A stretch of DNA of 64,000 bases from Dictyostelium discoideum. Its lineage: Eukaryota. This document shows positions 736-54,518 of this stretch, one piece after another. Each line of letters opens with the position of its first letter. Positions within the stretch are counted from its first letter, which is position 1. Under the pieces are notes generated by a model, which was not told the origin of the DNA, searched no databases, and worked only from the letters and a program-made list of their open reading frames with translations. Made by a program: the position numbers and the translations under genes. Location: the NCBI GenBank assembly GCA_000004695.1, contig CM000150.2, positions 2,112,001 to 2,176,000 of the forward strand, given 5' to 3'.

Positions 736-1024
736 AAAAAATGAAAAAATAAATAAAAAAAAAAATAAAAATAAAAGTAAAAAATTTCAAAAAATTCCAA
801 AATAAAAAAAAAAAAACAAAAATTACAAAAACAAATAACTGCTGATTTAAATAATTTGATAAAATAATAAATGTTTTAAAATTTATTTGAACTAATTATA
901 TATTTTTTTTTTTTTCATTTTTTTGTAAGTGAGATATGGATTTTTTTTTTTTTTCGGATATTTTTTGGATATTTTTTTTTTTTTTTTTTTTTGGAAAGAC
1001 TTGGAAAAAAAAGACTAAATTAAT

Positions 1025-4020
1025 TTATTTTCTTCCACCTTTACCTTTACCTTTTTTACCTTTACCTTTGTTGTTATTATTATTGTTGTTTGGTTTTTTT
1101 GGTTGGTTAGCGTTGGTGGTAGTTTGTTCAGTGGTAGTATTAGAGGCTTCATCGACTTCTTCACCTTCTTCGGTTTCTTCTTTGTTTTCAGTTTCAGTTG
1201 GTTTAGCTTGTTCAGTGGTTGATTCTTCTACTTTGGTTTCTTCTTGGACTGGTTCTTCAACTTTGGTTTCTTCTTGAACTGGTTCTTCAACTTTAGTTTC
1301 TTCTTGGACTGGTTCTTCAACTTTAGTTTCTTCTTGAACTGGTTCTTCAACTTTAGTTTCTTCTTGGACTGGTTCTTCAACTTTGATTTCTTCTTGAACT
1401 GGTTCTTCAACTTTAGTTTCTTCTTGGACTGGTTCTTCAACTTTAGTTTCTTCGGCAGCTTTTTCAGCGGCGGCTTCAGCTTCTAATCTTTCTTTTTCGG
1501 CTTGTGCAGCGGCGGCAGCTTCAGCTTCTAATCTTTCTTTTTCGGCTTGGGCAGCAGCGGCTTCAGCTTCTAATCTTTCTTTTTCTAAACGTTCAGTTTC
1601 TTCTTTTTCTAATCTTTCTTTTTCGGCTTGGGCAGCGGCGGCAGCTTCAGCTTCTAATCTTTCTTTTTCAGCTTGAGCAGCGGCAGCTTCAGCTTCTAAT
1701 TTTTCTTTTTCAGCTTGAGCGGCAGCGGCGGCTTCAGCTTCTAATCTTTCTTTTTCAGCTTGAGCAGCGGCGGCTTCAGCTTCTAATTTTTCTTTTTCTA
1801 AACGTTCAGCTTCTTCTTTTTCTAATCTTTCTTTTTCGGCTTGAGCAGCAGCTTCAGCTTCAGCTTCTAATTTTTCTTTTTCAGCTTGAGCAGCAGCAGC
1901 AGCTTCAGCTTCTAATCTTTCTTTTTCGGCTTGTGCAGCAGCGGCGGCTTCAGCTTCTAATCTTTCTTTTTCAGCTTGAGCAGCGGCGGCTTCAGCTTCT
2001 AATTTTTCTTTTTCTAAACGTTCAGCTTCTTCTTTTTCAGCTTGAGCAGCAGCGGCGGCTTCAGCTTCTAATCTTTCTTTTTCGGCTTGAGCAGCAGCGG
2101 CGGCTTCAGCTTCTAATCTTTCTTTTTCAGCTTGAGCAGCGGCGGCAGCTTCGGCTTCTAATCTTTCTTTTTCGGCTTGGGCAGCAGCGGCAGCTTCAGC
2201 TTCTAATTTTTCTTTTTCAGCTTGAGCAGCGGCGGCAGCTTCGGCTTCTAATTTCTCTTTTTCTAAACGTTCAGTTTCTTCTTTTTCTAATCTTTCTTTT
2301 TCAGCTTGAGCGGCAGCGGCGGCTTCAGCTTCTAATCTTTCTTTTTCAGCTTGAGTAGCAGCGGCGGCTTCAGCTTCTAATTTTTCTTTTTCTAAACGAT
2401 CAGCTTCTTCTTTTTCTAATCTTTCTTTTTCAGCTTGAACGGCAGCGGCGGCTTCAGCTTCTAATCTTTCTTTTTCAGCTTGGGCGGCAGCGGCGGCTTC
2501 AGCTTCTAATCTTTCTTTTTCAGCTTGAGCAGCAGCGGCGGCTTCAGCTTCTAATCTTTCTTTTTCTAATTTATCTGCTTCTTCTTTTTCTAAACGTTCT
2601 TTTTCAGCTTGAGCGGCTGCTGCTGCTTCTTGTTGTTGTTTTTCTAAATTTTCTTGAGCTTCCTTTTCATCTTTAATTCTCTTTTCTTCAGCTTCTTTGG
2701 CAACTCTTTCAGCCTCTTCCTTTTCTAAACGCTCTTTTTCTAATTTTGCTGCTGCTTCTTCTTTTTCTAAACGTTCTTTTTCTTCTTTTTCTTTTGAATC
2801 ATCAACAACTGGTTCTGGTTTTGATTCTTCAACAACTGGTTTTGATTCTTCGACTACTGGTTTTGATTCTTCGACAACTGGTTTTGATTCTTCAACAACT
2901 GGTTTTGATTCTTCAACAACTGGTGAAGAAGTAGTTGTAGTAGTTGTAGTTGTTGTAGAAGTAGTAGTAGTGTTAATATTTGATGATGGTGATTCATTTT
3001 TAGCATTTTCAATTCTTTCTTTAATCCATTCTAAAATATAAGTAACAAATTCTTCTTTAGCAAATTCATTATGAACTTCATGATACATATTTTCCCAAAG
3101 TTTTAAAGTTTTATCGACAGTTGATGGAACACGATCATAGAATTGTTGTGAAGCTTTTGGACAAGTGATTTTATCATCATTAGCGTGAACCAATAATAAT
3201 GGAGTATCAAATTGTGGTGCTAAATCAATGAGTTGTTCAGAACGTTGTAACATCCATTTAGCCATACCCAATGAGATTTTATTGTGAACCAATTTATCTT
3301 GTTTATATTCGTTTACGACTGCAGAATCTTTAGAGATTAAAGTTGGATCGATTGAATTGCTGATGGTCCATGATGGCATGAGACCACCCAATAAATTACC
3401 CATACTAAGTTTGACACCTGATACTTTGATTGCTGGTTTAATCAATGGTGATGTAACGATACAACCTGCTGGATGGTGATCTTTCTTCTTTAAATTGTAA
3501 TGAAGTGCTAAACAACCACCAAAACTATGACCATAGATAAAATGTGGTACATCGGTTTCAGCTGTTGATGCAATTAATTGAATATCTTTTAATGATTGTT
3601 CGAGTGATGGTGAATGACCTCTAACACCACTTGAAATACCATGACCTCTTTGATCGAATGCATTTACTTTAATACCTTGTTCTGCAAATCTACTAAAAAC
3701 ATGTTCATAACGACCACTATGTTCACCTAAACCATGAATCTAAATAATAAAAAGTTTTTTATTAAAATTAAGTTACACATAAATTTTTTTTTTTTTTTTT
3801 TTTTTTTTTCCCTCTTAATTTTTTTTTTTTTTTTTTTTCCCACGAATCTCAAAAATAAAAAAAAAAAAAAAAAATAATGAAAAAGAAGGGGTGAAGGGGT
3901 TTATTATTGGTTTTAAAAAACTTACCATGGTAACTGTGGCAATTGGTTTAACTTTTGGCTATGAAATATAAAAATAAATTATTAAGAAAATTAATATCCA
4001 TGCATTATTATTTGAATTTG

Positions 4021-34484: not shown

Positions 34485-35580
34485 ATGGTTGGAAAAAGAG
34501 AAGAAAAGAAAAGATTGTTATCAGATGATTCATCGATAACAATCAATGATGATGGAGCAGGTGGAGCCAAATTTGCCGATGAGCCAGAGAAAGATGGATG
34601 TACAACAGGAATTTTACGTGCATTAGGTTTGAAAGAAAAGAAGAAACCAAAGAAGGATATGAATAAAGAGAAAGAGTTTAACGATAAATTCAGAGAGATT
34701 TCAATGTTGGATAAAGATTCAATGTTAAATAGAACTGGATCACCATTATCAGGTTTATCAGAGGAAGAGGTCAAACGTCGTCTTGGAGTTTATGGAAAGA
34801 ATGTAATAGCACAAGTTAAACCAATCTCATGGTATAAATTATTATTTGTTGCATTCACACATCCATTCAATATCGTGTTGACTATTATCGCCACCGTTTC
34901 CATTGCCACCCAAGATTATGCAACCTTTGCAGTTGTAATGTTTATGGTGTTATTATCAGCAGTTTTACGTTTCTATGAAGAGCATAAATCAAGTAAAGCA
35001 TTCATTCATTTGAAATCCTTAGTGAAAACCACTGTAACAGTGTTACGTACTATCAAAGGAGTTAGCACAGAGGTACAAATCGATATTGAAGACGTTGTAC
35101 CAGGTGATATTGTACCATTGAAAGCAGGTGACGTTTTTCCAGGTGATGTTCGTATTTTAGAATCAAATAGTTTATTCGTATCACAATCTTCATTGACCGG
35201 TGAATTTTTACCAGTAGAAAAAGGTCCAGACGCTTCCGAAGAACAAACTACAATTTTCGATACTCCAAATGTTGGTATTATGTCAACAAATATTGTCTCT
35301 GGTAGTGGTATTGGTGTTGTTTTCGATACTGGTTGTAGAACTTATATCTCTTCAATCTCTGAAATTCTTACTTCAACTCAAACTACAAATGCTTTTGATG
35401 TTGGTGTTAAAAAAGTAGCTTATCTTTTAATGGGTTTTGGTGTAGTTTTAGTACCAATCGTTATTGTTATTAATGGTTTAACTACTCATGATTGGGTTGA
35501 TTCAACTATGTTTGGTTTATCTGTTGCTGTTGGGTAAATATTAATCTTTATTATATTTATATTTATATTAATTATATACT

Positions 35581-35628
<48 letters not shown>

Positions 35629-37458
35629 TAATTAAATTTTAGTTTAACACCAGAAATGTTACCAATGATTTTAAATGCAAATCTTGCAAAAGGTGCAGCA
35701 GATATGTCAAAAAAGAAAACAATTGTTAAACAACTTCATTCAATTCAAAATATGGGTGCTATGGATATTTTATGTTCAGATAAAACAGGTACTTTAACAG
35801 AGGATAACGTTAGATTAGATTCTTATATTGGTGGTGATAAAAAGGAATTGGCAGATGTTTTACGTTATTCATTCTTTAATTCATCATTCCAAAAGGGTTT
35901 AAAGAATGTATTGGATAATTCAATCATTTCATATTATAATAATCAATTTGCACCAGGTACAGCCGATGGATCAAATAAAAATCATCATGAACAAGAAGCA
36001 ATTGGTCATGGTGCTGAAGTTAAACCAGATGAAAGATTAATTGAAGGTTATGCATTGGTTGATGAATTCCCATTTGATTTCACTCGTCGTCGTGTATCAA
36101 TTATTCTTTCACAACCAGAATCAAAAGGTAATCTTTTAATTTGTAAAGGTGCAGTTGAAGAAGTTTTATCATGTTGTACACATTTGGCTGTTCGTGATTC
36201 TGAACCAATTTTATTGACTCCAGATTTGAAAGAACAAATGCTTTCAATCACCAATGAATTAAATGTTGATGGTCTTCGTGTACTCTCTGTTGCCACTAAA
36301 GTATTTAGCACCGATATTCCAAGTGATTATGAATATGATGTTAAAAATGATGAAGGTGGTCTCACTTTCTATGGTTTCCTTTCATTCATTGATCCACCAA
36401 AATCAGATTGTGCAGGTGCTATTGAAATGTTAAGAGGTAATGGTATTGAAATTAAAGTATTAACAGGTGATAATTTAGCAGTTGCTAGAAAGATTTGCAA
36501 AGATGTTGGTATCGATACAACTCGTGTTATATCAGGTATTGAATTGGAGAATGCTTCACCAGAGGAATTTGATGAACTTGTCGAACGTTGTACCTTATTT
36601 GCCAAATTAACTCCAATTCAAAAATATAACGTTGTTAAAGCTTTAAAGAAACATAAACATACCGTTGGTTTCTTGGGTGATGGTGTTAATGATGCTTTGG
36701 CCCTTCGTGAAGCTGATATTGGTATCTCTGTAGATACTGCCACCAATATTGCCAAGGATGCTTCTGATATTATTCTTTTGGAAAAGTCACTCACTGTCAT
36801 TAATACCGCCGTTAGAACTGGTCGTATCACTCATGCCAACACTATTAAATACATTAAGATGGCTGCTTCTTCCAATTTTGGTAACGTTTTCTCAATGTTG
36901 ATTGCATCAGCTTGGCTTCCATTCATTCCACTTAAACCACTCCAAATGTTAACTCAAAATCTTTTATACGATTTCTCTCAAATCTCTATCCCTTGGGATA
37001 ATGTCGATGAAGAATACTTAAAGATCCCACATCCATGGAGTGTTAGAAGTTTATTCAAATTTATGGTTTTCTTGGGTCCAATTTCCTCAATTTTCGATGT
37101 TGGTATTTTCTCTTACATGTGGTGGTATTTAGGTTGGACTACAGAAGTTACCCAATCAAGTTTCCAAACTGGTTGGTACGTTGAAGGTCTTATCACTCAA
37201 GTTTTCATCGTTCATATGATTCGTACCGTTAAAGTACCATTTATTCAACGTTGGGCTTCTTGGCAATTAACTGTTAATACCGTAATCATCGCTGCTATTT
37301 GTATTGCAATTCCATATACTCCATTAAGTCCATACTTATTAATGGAAAAATTACCAGCAATGTATTATCCAGGTCTTGCCAGTACTTTTGTTGGTTATTT
37401 CTTATTAACTCAAATTGTTAAAAAGATTTATATGGCTGTATTTGGTGAATGGTTATAA
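34485..37458 (+). CDS. P-type ATPase of the bacterial MgtA (Mg2+-importing, P3B) type. Two exons: join(34485..35533, 35643..37458), about 954 aa.
   Basis: ..FTHPFNIVLTIIATVSIATQDYATFAVVMFMVLLSAVLRFYEEHKS.., TGEFLPVEKG and ..SVAVG|LTPEMLPMILNANLAKGAADMSKKKTIVKQLHSIQNMGAMDILCSDKTGTLTEDNV (DKTGT phosphorylation site). Also KGAVEEVL, LTGDNLAVARKICKDVGI, GDGVNDALALREADIGISV and 10 predicted TM segments. It looks close to bacterial MgtA/MgtB from memory. The intron has a GTAAAT donor and an aattttAG acceptor, phase 2. Confidence 0.8.
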
Positions 37459-42155: not shown

Positions 42156-42808
42156 TTAAATTTTAACAAAATAAACTTTTTCTCTACGATTCGAAATTTC
42201 AATTTCAATTTCATTTAGGACATCTAAAAGAAATGGACAATGAATTGAATCAATACCTTTTTTCCAAATATTATAATTATCGCAACTAACAATATTTTTA
42301 ACTTTATCTTTTGTATTTTCTAATAATGGATAATTTATATAATTTACAATTGATTTTATACCTTTTGCAATACCTTTTTGAATGTAAACTGCCGATGATT
42401 TTGGTAACTTTATATTTAACTTTTTTAAGAGATGTTCTCTCATCATTCTAATTTGAAAAGATTCGGTACTTGGATTTTGAAATATTGAAAACAATAATAA
42501 TTTTAAACTATTCATATGATATCTATAACCAATTGTGAATAAACTATTATTTAAACAACTTATATTTGAATTTATTAATGAAAAATACCATCCATTTTTA
42601 TTTGGTGTTTCGTAACATATTATATTTGAAAAGTAAATCGAACTATCATCTCCTGCTATATTTGTTTTACAAAAATTATTACAAAATATATCAAACGCTA
42701 TTATTTTACCAAGTTGTTTAAATTTTTCTTGACCTTTGTATCCTGAAAAATATTCTTTATGATTTAATTCATTAAATTTTTTACCATTTTGTCTAAATTC
42801 CATTACTA

Positions 42809-42845
<37 letters not shown>

Positions 42846-43464
42846 TATTGATTATAATTAATTAATTTTTTAAAAAATACTTACTTAAAAAAAATGTTTT
42901 TTCAAATTCAGATTTTATAAAATCATTTAAAAATTGATCATCTTTTGAAAAATCTAATAAATTTGAAGACATTTCTAAAAATTCATTATTTTTTTCTAAT
43001 AATCTTAAATCTAAAATTGGTAATTTTAAAATATTTTGTAAAACTGATGCATAACATTCTTGTGCAATAGTTGGTGTTGATTTTATTAAAATTTGATTAA
43101 AATGTAAATTATCACTTGATAATGTAACTAATAAACAAACTATAGAATTTCCAAAATCTATAATTTCAATATCTATTATTGTATTCCAATCAATTTCTAA
43201 AATATTTGATGTTATAAATTCTTGATTATTAATATTTAAATTTTTTTTTAAATTTGATTTCAAATTTTGTGGCGTTGAACATAATGTATCATAATTATCA
43301 ATTATTGAAATACTTGGTGTATATATATTATTCGAATTATTATTATTATTATTTTTATTATTTTTATTATTATTACTGTTATTATTATTAATATTATTAT
43401 TTTTATTATTTTTATTATTATTATTATTTTTTATTTTTTTTTTAAAATCTCTAAATGTTTTCAT
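42156..43464 (-). CDS. Hypothetical protein with an N-terminal poly-Asn/Lys region and a C-terminal region with kinase-like motifs. Two exons: join(42156..42805, 42885..43464), minus strand.
   Basis: Exon 1 (..SEFEKTFFL) ends at a GTAAGT donor. An aaattAG acceptor then gives I-MEFRQNGKKF..., which is the track ORF 42156..42803. It contains ..IEIIDFGNSIV.. (DFG-like) and ..FDIFCNNFCKTNIAGDD..., which could be an atypical or actin-fragmin-kinase-like fold. This assignment is weak. Confidence 0.45.
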
Positions 43465-45479: not shown

Positions 45480-45949
45480 ATGAGCTTTGCAAGTAGCACG
45501 GTCTCAAATTCTAATAATAGTTCACTAACATCCTCATCATTAATCAACGCTAACAATATTTTATTCAGTTTTGAAAAATCAACATACAACAAAGAATCTA
45601 ATAATAATAGTGATAATAATAATAATAATAATAATAATAATAGTGATAATAATAACGATAATAATCAAAATAAAAATAAAACAACACAAATAAAATCAAA
45701 AGCAAAATCAGAATCATCACCACCACAACCAAAAATTGTAATATGTAAAATTTGTAATAAAAAAGGTCATAAGGAAAAAGAATGCCCCACACCGGATCTT
45801 AATAAAATCTGTTCAAATTGTAATAAAATTGGACATATCTCTTCAAATTGTAAGGTTATTCATGTTAATTTTGCAAGATCACCAAAACCACAACAAAATC
45901 AAAAAGAAAGAAAACCAAGAAATCAAAAACAACAACCACAACAACAACC

Positions 45950-45980
<31 letters not shown>

Positions 45981-46298
45981 GATCAACAACAAGAGCAACA
46001 ACAAAAACAAAAACCACAAACAAATTCAAGTAATTCAACTACACCATCTCCTACATATTCTTCACCACCACAACAAGCACCACAACCAAAACAACAATTA
46101 AAAAATGAACCAATCATTAAAAAAAGATTAGAATTAAAAAAAGTTGAAGTAGAAACTTTAAAACTTTCAAAAGATTTACCAAATAAACAATATTGTTTAT
46201 CAAATGGTGATGATATATTATTATATGATTCAGAAAAATTAGACTCATTTATTAATAGTCTTGTAAATTCAAAAATATCATCAATTTCAATTCCATTC

Positions 46299-46392
<94 letters not shown>

Positions 46393-48359
46393 GTGATCAA
46401 TATTTACCAATAATTGAATCACTCCATAAAAAAAATATAAATATTATTTTTAAAATTCAAATAGTACCAGATTCTTCAATATCTTGTATTAATAGTAATG
46501 AATTCCAACAACAATTTAAATCAAAAATTTCAAAAATTATTAATGATTTAAAACCAGATGGATTATTTTTTACAAATTTAAAACTATCTCATAAAGACAA
46601 TAAGGAAGAAGAAGAAGAAGAAGAACAAGAAGAATTATGCCAGAACTGTAAAGAAATGATGATTGAAAATGAACTAAATCCAAATGAACCTAAAGATAAC
46701 TTAATCTTTAATGATTATTCAATTGACCAATTTAAAAGATTTATTTCTCAATTCATAATTTCAATAACTACAAACTCAACATCAACTACAACAACAACTA
46801 CAACAACTACAACTACTACTACAAACACTAATAAAAAGAAAAAGAAAGCAATTCCAATTAGTGTAGCATTTGAAAATCAATTTAACAATTTTATTCAATT
46901 AAATAAAGAATCATTAATTACTTCAAATTACCAAGAGATTCAATATAAAGATCAAATTAATTTCTCATTATTCTCGCATTACTCAAAAACTTTATCAAAT
47001 CAATCAATTGGTATTATTGATCTTTTCAATCAAAATCAACAACAACAACAACCAATTATTAAACCAATTGATACAATTTATTATGAATCACTTTATTCAC
47101 TATTATTAAATGGAAAATACTCATTGAACAACAACAACAACAACAACAATAATAATAACAATAATAATTGGGATGATAAATTATTAAATTATATTGGTAA
47201 AATTAATACATTAATTGATAATCAAGAAATTAAAATTCATAAAAATTGTAAATCAGTAGCTGAAATTGCAATTGTAATTCCAAATTATCAAAATCAATTA
47301 AATAATAACAATTGTGAAGAATCAATCAAACAATCAATTTATGGTGCAATTAGATTATTAGAAGATAATAATTATCAATTTAATGTAATCACTCAAATTG
47401 AAACAATTGCTTTAAATGATTTATCTCGTTACAAACTTTTAATTTTACCAGATCATTGTATTTTAACTTTTGATCAATCAAATAGATTACAAAAGTATAT
47501 TAATCAATGTGGTGGTTCAGTATTAATGTCAAATAGATCTGGTTTAATTGAATCAATTAATAATGACAACAACAACAATAATAATAGTAATAATAATAAT
47601 AATAGTAACACCAGTTTCAATAAATTAGAATTTAGTGATTCTATTTTAGATAAATCAAAACTACTTTCAACAAAAAAGAATTTTAATATTACTTCAAAGT
47701 CGCTAGCAATGAATGAATTATTTAATAATATTGATATTGACTATTTATCAAATTGTTTAATTGTTAATAATGGTTATGATGGTTGTACTCAATTAAAACA
47801 ATTACAAGACGAATCTTCAATAGTATTAATGAATAGTATAAATAGTAATAGTAATAAATCTCCAGCAATCTTATTAAATACAAACCAAAGAACAATTTAT
47901 TGTGTCTTTCCAATATTCCAACAATATTATCAATTTGGTCCATCAAATATGGAATTTATATCAAATATTTTCACAACTTTATTGGATCAAATTTTATTAA
48001 CTGATAATTTAATTTCAATAAATCCAATTTCTTCTGATATTAAAGTATTTATTTATAATCAACAACAACAAAAGTCAAATTCAACAAATAAAAATGATGA
48101 AAGTGATAAATACATTATTCATTTTTTAAATTTTAAAAAGCAACTTGATAACTCTGGTGAATTTTATAAACAAGGTTGTAAACTTGGAGTGGTTAGTGTA
48201 AATATAAAATTACCAAATAGCTCTGTATCCTCTGTATATTTAAAAACAAGTTCAACAATCATCCCAATTACAAATTTTAAAGTTTTAAATAATCATTTTA
48301 TTTCTGAAATTCCATTAAATCATTCTTTCCAAACTTTATTTATTCAATTTTCAAATTAA
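45480..48359 (+). CDS. CCHC zinc-knuckle protein, 959 aa, single exon, with very long polyQ/polyN/polyT tracts.
   Basis: Two CX2CX4HX4C knuckles are present: CKICNKKGHKEKEC and CSNCNKIGHISSNC. There is a Q-rich region (QQQPQQQQQQQQQQDQQQEQQQ), N runs and a (T)13 run. The start is an ATG. Confidence 0.55.
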
Positions 48360-52853: not shown

Positions 52854-52925
52854 TAGCTTCTCTAGGTTTCGATCCTAGGACCTCGAGGTTATGGGCCTCG
52901 CACTCTACCCCTGAGTTAAGAAGCT
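52854..52925 (-). tRNA. Initiator tRNA-Met (anticodon CAT), 72 nt.
   Basis: AGCTTCT-TA-ACTC-AGGGGTA-GAGT-G-CGAGG-CCCATAA-CCTCG-AGGTC-CTAGG-ATCGAAA-CCTAG-AGAAGCT-A. All four stems pair perfectly. The anticodon loop is C-C-CAT-A-A. The T-loop is GATCGAAAC with A54 and A60, and there are three G-C pairs in the anticodon stem, which are hallmarks of eukaryotic cytoplasmic initiator tRNA. Confidence 0.85.
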
Positions 52926-54446: not shown

Positions 54447-54518
54447 AGCTTCTTAACTCAGGGGTAGAGTGCGAGGCCCATAACCTCGAGGTCCTAGGAT
54501 CGAAACCTAGAGAAGCTA
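54447..54518 (+). tRNA. Initiator tRNA-Met (anticodon CAT), 72 nt, identical to copy 1 but in opposite orientation.
   Basis: Same sequence as 52854..52925 reverse-complemented. About 60 bp of upstream flank is also shared, with one mismatch. Confidence 0.85.

Follow-up and report, generated by a model that had tools for sequence, protein, structure and literature searches.

How did a magnesium pump of bacterial type come to be encoded in the nuclear genome of an amoeba? This question is raised by a two-exon gene of Dictyostelium discoideum, located on the forward strand of contig CM000150.2 (assembly GCA_000004695.1) within a stretch of 64,000 nucleotides (nt), positions 2,112,001 to 2,176,000, which was analyzed as a whole and is called here the window. 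A preliminary description, made from the letters of the window, had presented the gene as an MgtA-type (P3B) Mg2+-importing P-type ATPase, a subfamily whose sporadic presence in eukaryotes is usually interpreted as horizontal transfer. Our results agree with the family and lead to a different origin: we consider it likely, with a probability of about two in three, that this is a functional P3B gene inherited vertically among the dictyostelids, and that a Mucoromycotina-like fungus was its donor to the dictyostelid stem lineage, rather than a bacterium by direct transfer.

The gene is real, exactly placed and already annotated as a member of the P3B family. Two long open reading frames (ORFs) lying in different frames (window positions 34485-35537 and 35656-37458) are separated by a short, very AT-rich stretch; their spliced coding sequence of 2865 nt, running from the ATG at 34485 to the TAA stop that ends at 37458, yields a protein of 954 amino acids (aa) that reads SVAVGLTPEMLPMI across the splice junction. 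This protein is letter for letter that of D. discoideum AX4 (EAL72994.1 / XP_646983.1 / UniProt Q55EN7, on a 4,923,596-bp contig), for which UniRef gives the name "Magnesium-transporting ATPase, P-type 1", and near-identical copies are present in several other Dictyostelium assemblies; the boundaries and the single intron of the preliminary description are thus exact. The same holds for its assignment to the nuclear genome of the amoeba: the neighbors are typical host genes, encoding a CH plus spectrin-repeat protein, a ComC-like EGF protein and an actin-fragmin kinase, and both the coding G+C (34%) and the G+C at third codon positions (20%) are ordinary for the Dictyostelium genome. Contamination and a mis-joined pair of ORFs were ruled out by the identity with the AX4 protein, the several independent assemblies and the dictyostelid character of the neighbors.

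The encoded protein is a P3B (MgtA-type) P-type ATPase. It reached 1009.8 bits with TIGR01524, the NCBIfam equivalog model for P3B, against a cut-off of 610.75, whereas the P3A model gave 428.5 bits (cut-off 615.5), the P2A model 327.8 and the P5 model 215; all P2, P1 and P5 models scored lower than P3A, and each of these scores lies under the cut-off of its own model. The model for the enterobacterial type of MgtA (NF011702 / PRK15122) was narrowly missed, with 964 bits against a cut-off of 975, and the protein is not assigned to that subfamily. The five canonical Pfam domains of P-type ATPases (E1-E2_ATPase, Hydrolase, Cation_ATPase, Cation_ATPase_N and Cation_ATPase_C) are present in order. 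Among solved structures the best matches are those of Escherichia coli MgtA (8uy7, E = 4.6e-241; 9byb and 9ejn, about 1e-204), extending over residues 63-953 and thus confirming the colinearity with MgtA over almost the whole length; the next group, that of the Ca2+-ATPases, follows at about 1e-74. All 270 best homologues are P3B-like, and the motifs that had led to the MgtA assignment are all present in the protein (GLTPEMLPMILNANLAKGAADMSKKKTIVKQLHSIQNMGAMDILCSDKTGTLT, LTGDNLAVARKICKDVGI and GDGVNDALALREADIGISV). Membership in P3A or P2, the alternative raised with the original assignment, is ruled out by the subfamily scores below cut-off, and the structure matches likewise give no such grouping.

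To place the gene among its relatives a large database search was carried out, which returned orthologues with 69-94% identity in every sampled dictyostelid genus (Dictyostelium, Tieghemostelium, Polysphondylium, Heterostelium, Acytostelium and Cavenderia). The nearest proteins from outside the dictyostelids are fungal, with 50-54% identity, and belong to Endogonales, Mucorales, Umbelopsis, Calcarisporiella and Lipomycetaceae yeasts; early land plants follow with 47-48%, and bacteria, with thousands of homologues, with 45-47%. No amoebozoan other than dictyostelids occurred among the best 120 and the best 150 matches, in a database that includes EukProt sequences. An exhaustive search of representatives contributed 150 further sequences, the labelled ones that joined the eukaryotes coming from chytrids, Blastocladiomycota, Mortierellomycota, Glomeromycota, Dikarya and seed plants. 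Acytostelium subglobosum has three P3B copies (P0007, P0010 and P0011), one of which (P0011, 60% identity) is basal to all dictyostelid sequences and carries the changes T156N, T158V and D191N at the cytoplasmic site described below.

Trees were built with our own implementation of neighbor-joining (NJ) with bootstrap, with no P3A or P2 outgroup. In a tree of 257 sequences and 829 columns the labelled eukaryotes formed one clan, in which the dictyostelids (100%) were located within a fungal group. A focused L-INS-i alignment (100 sequences, 870 columns, 200 replicates) gave a eukaryotic P3B clan of 64 sequences, comprising dictyostelids, fungi and plants, with a bootstrap of 96, and all of its members that could be labelled, besides the dictyostelids, are fungi or plants. 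Within it the order obtained was (Calcarisporiella,(Jimgerdemannia,(Dictyostelia,(Mucorales+Umbelopsis+Lipomycetaceae)))), with support of 96/97/82. The group of dictyostelids and Mucoromycotina was recovered in 94-98% of replicates when using Kimura, gamma or p distances, and a fungal clade without the dictyostelids in 0%. The succession of Calcarisporiella, Endogonales and (Mucorales+Umbelopsidales) in the gene tree fits what we take to be the species tree of the Mucoromycotina, which was assumed rather than computed. Homology search and phylogeny thus bear out the MgtA family but not a bacterial sister group, as the dictyostelids nest in fungi. The dictyostelid sequences themselves form a 100% clade whose two main branches fit the accepted division of Dictyostelia, and the gene was therefore inherited vertically from the dictyostelid common ancestor.

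Moreover, the position of the dictyostelids was evaluated by maximum likelihood, using our own pruning-likelihood code with a BLOSUM62-derived exchange matrix, empirical frequencies and four gamma categories (shape 0.8, the best of a grid). A dictyostelid clade of five taxa was grafted in turn on all 41 branches of a backbone with 22 taxa, with full optimization of branch lengths each time. The best placement was on the stem of Mucorales+Umbelopsis+Lipomycetaceae, with a weight of 0.997 by resampling of estimated log-likelihoods (RELL); the next best, still in Mucoromycotina, was lower by 30.5 units of log-likelihood (lnL), with z = 2.6 in the Kishino-Hasegawa (KH) test and a RELL weight of 0.002 or less. 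Placing the dictyostelids as sister to all fungi that share the TGEF motif (see below) cost 61.7 lnL (KH z 3.6), placements at the base of the eukaryotes 106 to 165 lnL (KH z 4.6-6.0), and any bacterial branch 285 lnL or more (KH z over 8), all of these having a RELL weight of 0.

Two further groups of sequences came to light in these trees. Ten metagenomic proteins of about 1250 aa (P0065, P0067, P0071, P0076, P0083, P0086, P0087, P0105, P0120 and P0130) join an MgtA body to the HAMP, HisKA and HATPase_c domains of a sensor kinase according to precomputed Pfam assignments; these fusions group with PVC-type bacteria (Methylacidiphilales, Verrucomicrobiae and Lentisphaeria), near the eukaryotic clan. 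The P3B genes of Lipomycetaceae yeasts (P0013-P0026; Lipomyces tetrasporus, L007) nest in Mucorales beside Apophysomyces (L006) with NJ bootstrap of 96-97, and they have in common with Apophysomyces two intron positions with their phases, one in the N-terminal region and one, of phase 1, in the codon equivalent to E139 of E. coli, which looks like the transfer of an intron-bearing gene from fungus to fungus.

The introns offer a record of the history of the gene that is separate from the trees. Splicing of the intron of D. discoideum, here called position A, is required, because its retention brings an in-frame TAA directly after exon 1, and its features are typical of Dictyostelium introns. 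It had been reported to separate the A-domain/M2 linker from the P-domain; actually it falls inside transmembrane helix M4, in the middle of a hydrophobic segment (residues 342-360 by hydropathy), four residues before Glu354 of the PEMLP motif and 46 before Asp396. Exon structures were mapped exactly onto genomic DNA for twelve genes, and in these an intron at this place and of this phase, within the Gly that precedes LTPEM, was also found in Cavenderia fasciculata and Heterostelium album, and in neither D. purpureum and T. lacteum nor any fungus or plant examined. Intron A is therefore exclusive to dictyostelids among the genes mapped, and as its position is shared with two distant dictyostelids, the idea that it is a recent feature of the D. 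discoideum gene finds no support.

A second intron position, B, is more widespread. It is a phase-2 intron that interrupts the Met codon ahead of D-x-L-C-x-DKTG, and its alignment column and phase agree among all carriers. These are three dictyostelids (D. purpureum, T. lacteum and H. album), a fungus (Jimgerdemannia), a lycophyte (Diphasiastrum) and a seed plant (Macadamia); in D. discoideum this site is uninterrupted (GGTGCTATGGAT). As the two introns occur together in H. album, they were most likely both present in the dictyostelid ancestor, with later loss of A or B in the different lineages. Position B is flanked by GCN AT|G GAY, unlike a canonical AG|G proto-splice site, and this speaks against several independent insertions at the place, without excluding them. 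In Apophysomyces (L006, 3442-3509) an intron of the same phase is located 9 nt downstream of position B, and could be either a slid intron or an independent gain.

We also compared the protein residue by residue with E. coli MgtA (MG1655), using residue roles taken from two cryo-EM studies (bioRxiv 10.1101/2024.02.28.582502; PMC13174805). All catalytic residues and all membrane Mg2+-site residues of the bacterial enzyme are kept (Table 1), and so are Asn789 (N734) in M6, Gly828 (G773) in M7 and Trp861 (W806) in M8. In E. coli MgtA, E331 is needed for transport, and D780 is essential and specific to the MgtA clade (bioRxiv 10.1101/2024.02.28.582502). The position of D738 is that of the proton-acceptor Asp of P3A pumps, and the Thr found at the position of S813 is also the commonest residue there among bacteria. 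Hydropathy gave the expected helices of a roughly ten-helix pump. From these residues we infer a working pump with a Mg2+ site of MgtA type, which would run the usual E1/E2 phosphoenzyme cycle and move Mg2+ from the extracytosolic side (the medium, or the lumen of endosome, phagosome or contractile vacuole) to the cytosol, as proposed for bacterial MgtA.

The cytoplasmic inhibitory Mg2+ site that bridges the A and P domains in E. coli (D191, E173 and T156/T158 with D663) is not intact, having Asn718 at the position of D663 and Gln198 at that of E173. Of 196 non-eukaryotic sequences, 180 have Asp at the D663 position, and almost every eukaryotic sequence has another residue there; Asn at this place was seen in no sampled bacterial group. 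Cytoplasmic Mg2+ regulation thus probably differs from that of the bacterial enzymes. A further substitution concerns the dephosphorylation loop, in which TGES is replaced by TGEF in 35 of the 36 sequences of the clade formed by dictyostelids, Mucoromycotina (including Bifiguratus) and Lipomycetaceae, and in none of the 221 others. A disease mutant of SERCA with a Ser186-to-Phe change disturbs the processing of the phosphoenzyme, a lead for which our literature search returned nothing.

Given the single clan of the eukaryotic P3B proteins and the position of the dictyostelids inside the Mucoromycotina, the most economical history would be a fungal transfer: an intron-bearing gene would have passed from a Mucoromycotina-like fungus to the dictyostelid stem lineage, intron A would then have been gained in that stem, and the older intron B would later have been lost in the lineage of D. 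discoideum. Several points weigh against this proposal. Upon Dayhoff-6 recoding the support for the group of dictyostelids and Mucoromycotina fell to 60%, the eukaryotic clan being recovered with 86%; the backbone of that clan is poorly resolved, with bootstrap values of 6-45; the methods are simple, the likelihood model being homogeneous and its NJ backbone fixed; and the lack of other Amoebozoa is a property of the best-120 and best-150 match lists solely. Of three unlabelled metagenomic sequences placed inside the eukaryotic clan or next to it (P0132, P0135 and P0156), the first two group with Podila and Rhizophagus; the presence of intron B in plants too would equally fit an old vertical eukaryotic gene. 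With respect to function, Mg2+ import is deduced from conserved residues only, and whether P3B pumps truly pump Mg2+ is debated, bacteria included (PMC10654040). An attraction of the AT-rich Dictyostelium sequences driven by composition was also considered and rejected: the grouping survives Dayhoff-6 recoding at the lower support given above, the differences in FYMINK/GARP are small, and the most AT-biased bacterium showed no attraction to the dictyostelids. Of the metagenomic sequences, P0135 (876 aa, on a 43-kb contig) has its best bacterial-genome match, with only 41% identity, in Enterococcus.

Some of these points would be expected if the gene were older than any transfer, that is, if it had been inherited vertically from an early eukaryote or from the ancestor of Amoebozoa and fungi and lost elsewhere, with the nesting in Mucoromycotina as a tree artefact. 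The single eukaryotic clan, the phase-2 intron B present in three eukaryotic supergroups at a site without proto-splice flanks, the weak backbone and the drop in support on recoding all speak for such an ancient gene; but the dictyostelids are inserted within the assumed species order of the Mucoromycotina, a placement outside those fungi costs 62-165 lnL, TGEF is confined to the dictyostelid and fungal clade, and very many independent losses would be needed, there being no non-dictyostelid amoebozoan among the best matches even with EukProt sequences included. We therefore regard ancient vertical inheritance as unlikely, though it deserves to be kept in mind.

A second alternative concerns the function and not the origin. 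In plants, P3B proteins such as Petunia PH1 act on the vacuolar membrane as partners that boost a P3A proton pump, PH5 (PMC10654040; PMC5903981), and the Dictyostelium protein, which falls in one eukaryotic clan with the PH1-like proteins and coexists with a P3A pump, PatB (PMC10654040), might be a partner of this kind instead of a pump itself. This seems very improbable to us, as the hallmark of the PH1 type is a loss of the membrane Asp and of ion-site residues that the Dictyostelium protein does not present: PH1 is described as having no conserved Asp (PMC5903981), whereas Asp793 is in place in Dictyostelium, and the seven changes of the PH1-like protein of Macadamia (E331Q, S705A, N709S, N734S, D738S, G773A and S776C) affect residues that Dictyostelium, the fungi and early land plants all keep. 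The weakest alternative, a direct transfer from a bacterium to the amoeba lineage followed by amelioration and the gain of one intron, which is what the preliminary description had implied, is hardly credible, since for all that the family is mostly prokaryotic, that the nearest non-eukaryotic group in the tree is bacterial (PVC-type bacteria included) and that the gene has one intron only, fungal proteins are closer than any bacterial one, the dictyostelids lie inside both the eukaryotic clan and the Mucoromycotina, every bacterial branch is worse as a grafting site by 285 lnL or more, TGEF and the loss of the Asp equivalent to D663 are characters held in common with eukaryotes but not bacteria, and a fungus and plants have intron position B as well.

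With regard to the plant members of the family, the gene of Macadamia integrifolia (L012, P0143) has the same seven intron positions as that of the lycophyte Diphasiastrum (L008, P0038). The seven ion-site residues gone in the Macadamia protein are still present in the proteins of the lycophyte, of moss, of fungi and of dictyostelids, which suggests that the pump site was lost in the course of land-plant evolution. The losses in Macadamia agree with reports that PH1 does not pump by itself (PMC10654040; PMC5903981).

Homologues of MgtA in fungi and plants are on record (PMC4758953) and are also referred to, citing Li et al. 2016, in PMC5903981, while one review describes P3B pumps as exclusively prokaryotic (PMC6884021). 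Our literature search found no paper discussing a P3B/MgtA gene of Dictyostelium; the gene is already known as a family member, and it is the evolutionary details that may be new, and of specialist interest. TGEF, the shared intron positions and the tree together suggest that the eukaryotic P3B genes had a single origin and were passed between eukaryotes, from a fungus to the dictyostelids and from Mucorales to Lipomycetaceae yeasts, a scenario that would correct the usual picture of sporadic bacterial transfers. A fuller version of the fungal proposal can be put forward tentatively, with odds that we place somewhat short of even: before the radiation of the dictyostelids the P3B gene would have been captured from a soil fungus resembling Mucoromycotina, one ancient intron-containing ancestor that moved between eukaryotic lineages, the step from Mucorales to Lipomycetaceae included, would have given rise to all eukaryotic P3B genes, and the pump of the amoeba, in contrast to its relatives in seed plants, would truly import Mg2+. 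If so, it could act at the plasma membrane or at phagosomes, in the direction opposite to that of Kil2.

Compared with bacterial MgtA/MgtB, the Dictyostelium protein is colinear over about 890 residues with about 45-48% identity, shares the same domain order and the motifs DKTGT, TGDN, GDGxND and PEMLP, and has the full Mg2+ site of M5, M7 and M8 (S705, N709, S776, D780 and S813/T) together with E331 and D738. It differs in being encoded by a nuclear gene with a spliceosomal intron and Dictyostelium codon usage, outside any mgtL or Mg2+-sensing leader context, in having a longer and charged tail (about aa 1-85, rich in Lys, Glu and Asp), and in the substitutions TGEF for TGES, D663 to Asn and T702 to Ala. 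The P3B proteins of Mucoromycotina and Lipomycetaceae form an exclusive clade with those of the dictyostelids, have TGEF and, in Jimgerdemannia, intron B, and are equally uncharacterised; they belong to another eukaryotic supergroup and have no intron A among the genes examined. With the plant proteins of the PH1 type (Petunia PH1) it shares the eukaryotic clan and intron position B, whereas those of seed plants have lost membrane ion-site residues and serve as helpers of the P3A pump PH5 (PMC10654040; PMC5903981). Within Dictyostelium itself, Kil2 is another P-type ATPase linked to Mg2+, but it is of the P5B type and proposed to supply Mg2+ to phagosomes, from the cytosol to the lumen, and for Kil2 genetic evidence exists (PMC6884021; PMC7003747), of which our literature search returned none for the P3B gene. 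The gene described here thus offers an unstudied eukaryotic P3B pump with a complete Mg2+ site of bacterial type in a genetically tractable phagocyte, a convenient system for deciding whether P3B ATPases really pump Mg2+, which has been doubted (PMC10654040), and it could show how the amoeba handles Mg2+ beside the proposed phagosomal pump Kil2.

Table 1. Features of the P3B gene of D. discoideum, with positions in the window and equivalent residues of E. coli MgtA.
Feature	Position	Strand	Remark
Whole gene, 954-aa P3B-type P-type ATPase	34485-37458	+	Identity to XP_646983.1 / Q55EN7
Exon 1, 1049 nt	34485-35533	+	N-terminal tail, M1-M2, A domain, M3, first half of M4
N-terminal charged tail, aa ~1-85	34485-34739	+	E. 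coli MgtA alignment begins at query residue 63-87
A-domain dephosphorylation loop TGEF, aa 238-241	35196-35207	+	Canonical TGES; Glu240 = E215
Spliceosomal intron A, 109 nt, GTAAAT...TTTTAG	35534-35642	+	3.7% G+C; phase 2 in Gly350 codon (GG|T)
Exon 2, 1816 nt including stop	35643-37458	+	Rest of M4, P and N domains, M5-M10
M4 motif PEMLP, aa 353-357	35650-35664	+	Glu354 = E331
Met391 codon, ATG in GGTGCTATGGAT	35764-35766	+	Intron-less site of position B
Phosphorylation motif DKTGT, aa 396-400	35779-35793	+	Asp396 = D373
P-domain motif TGDN, aa 624-627	36463-36474	+	
P-domain motif GDGVND, aa 695-700	36676-36693	+	
M5 Mg2+-site Ser760, Asn761, Asn764	36871-36885	+	S705, N706, N709
M6 Asp793	36970-36972	+	D738
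M7 Mg2+-site Ser831, Asp835	37084-37098	+	S776, D780
M8 Thr868, Gln869	37195-37200	+	S813, Q814

Other features of the window were recorded along with the gene. Two tRNA-Met (CAT) genes with identical scores, at 52854-52925 (-) and 54447-54518 (+), are inverted with respect to each other and about 1.5 kb apart, the stretch between them having a raised G+C (31%) and a strong AT skew. In an ORF of 959 aa at 45480-48359 (+) the one clear domain is a CCHC zinc knuckle, and the product could be a protein of retroelement type or a nucleic-acid-binding one. The region 1001-3445 has a G+C of about 40%, roughly twice the average of the window, a strong negative AT skew and an ORF of 806 aa on the minus strand. 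Finally, at 42156-43464 (-) two adjacent ORFs each hold a part of the catalytic domain of the actin-fragmin kinase (profile positions 1-127 and 125-282), an arrangement that points to an intervening intron.

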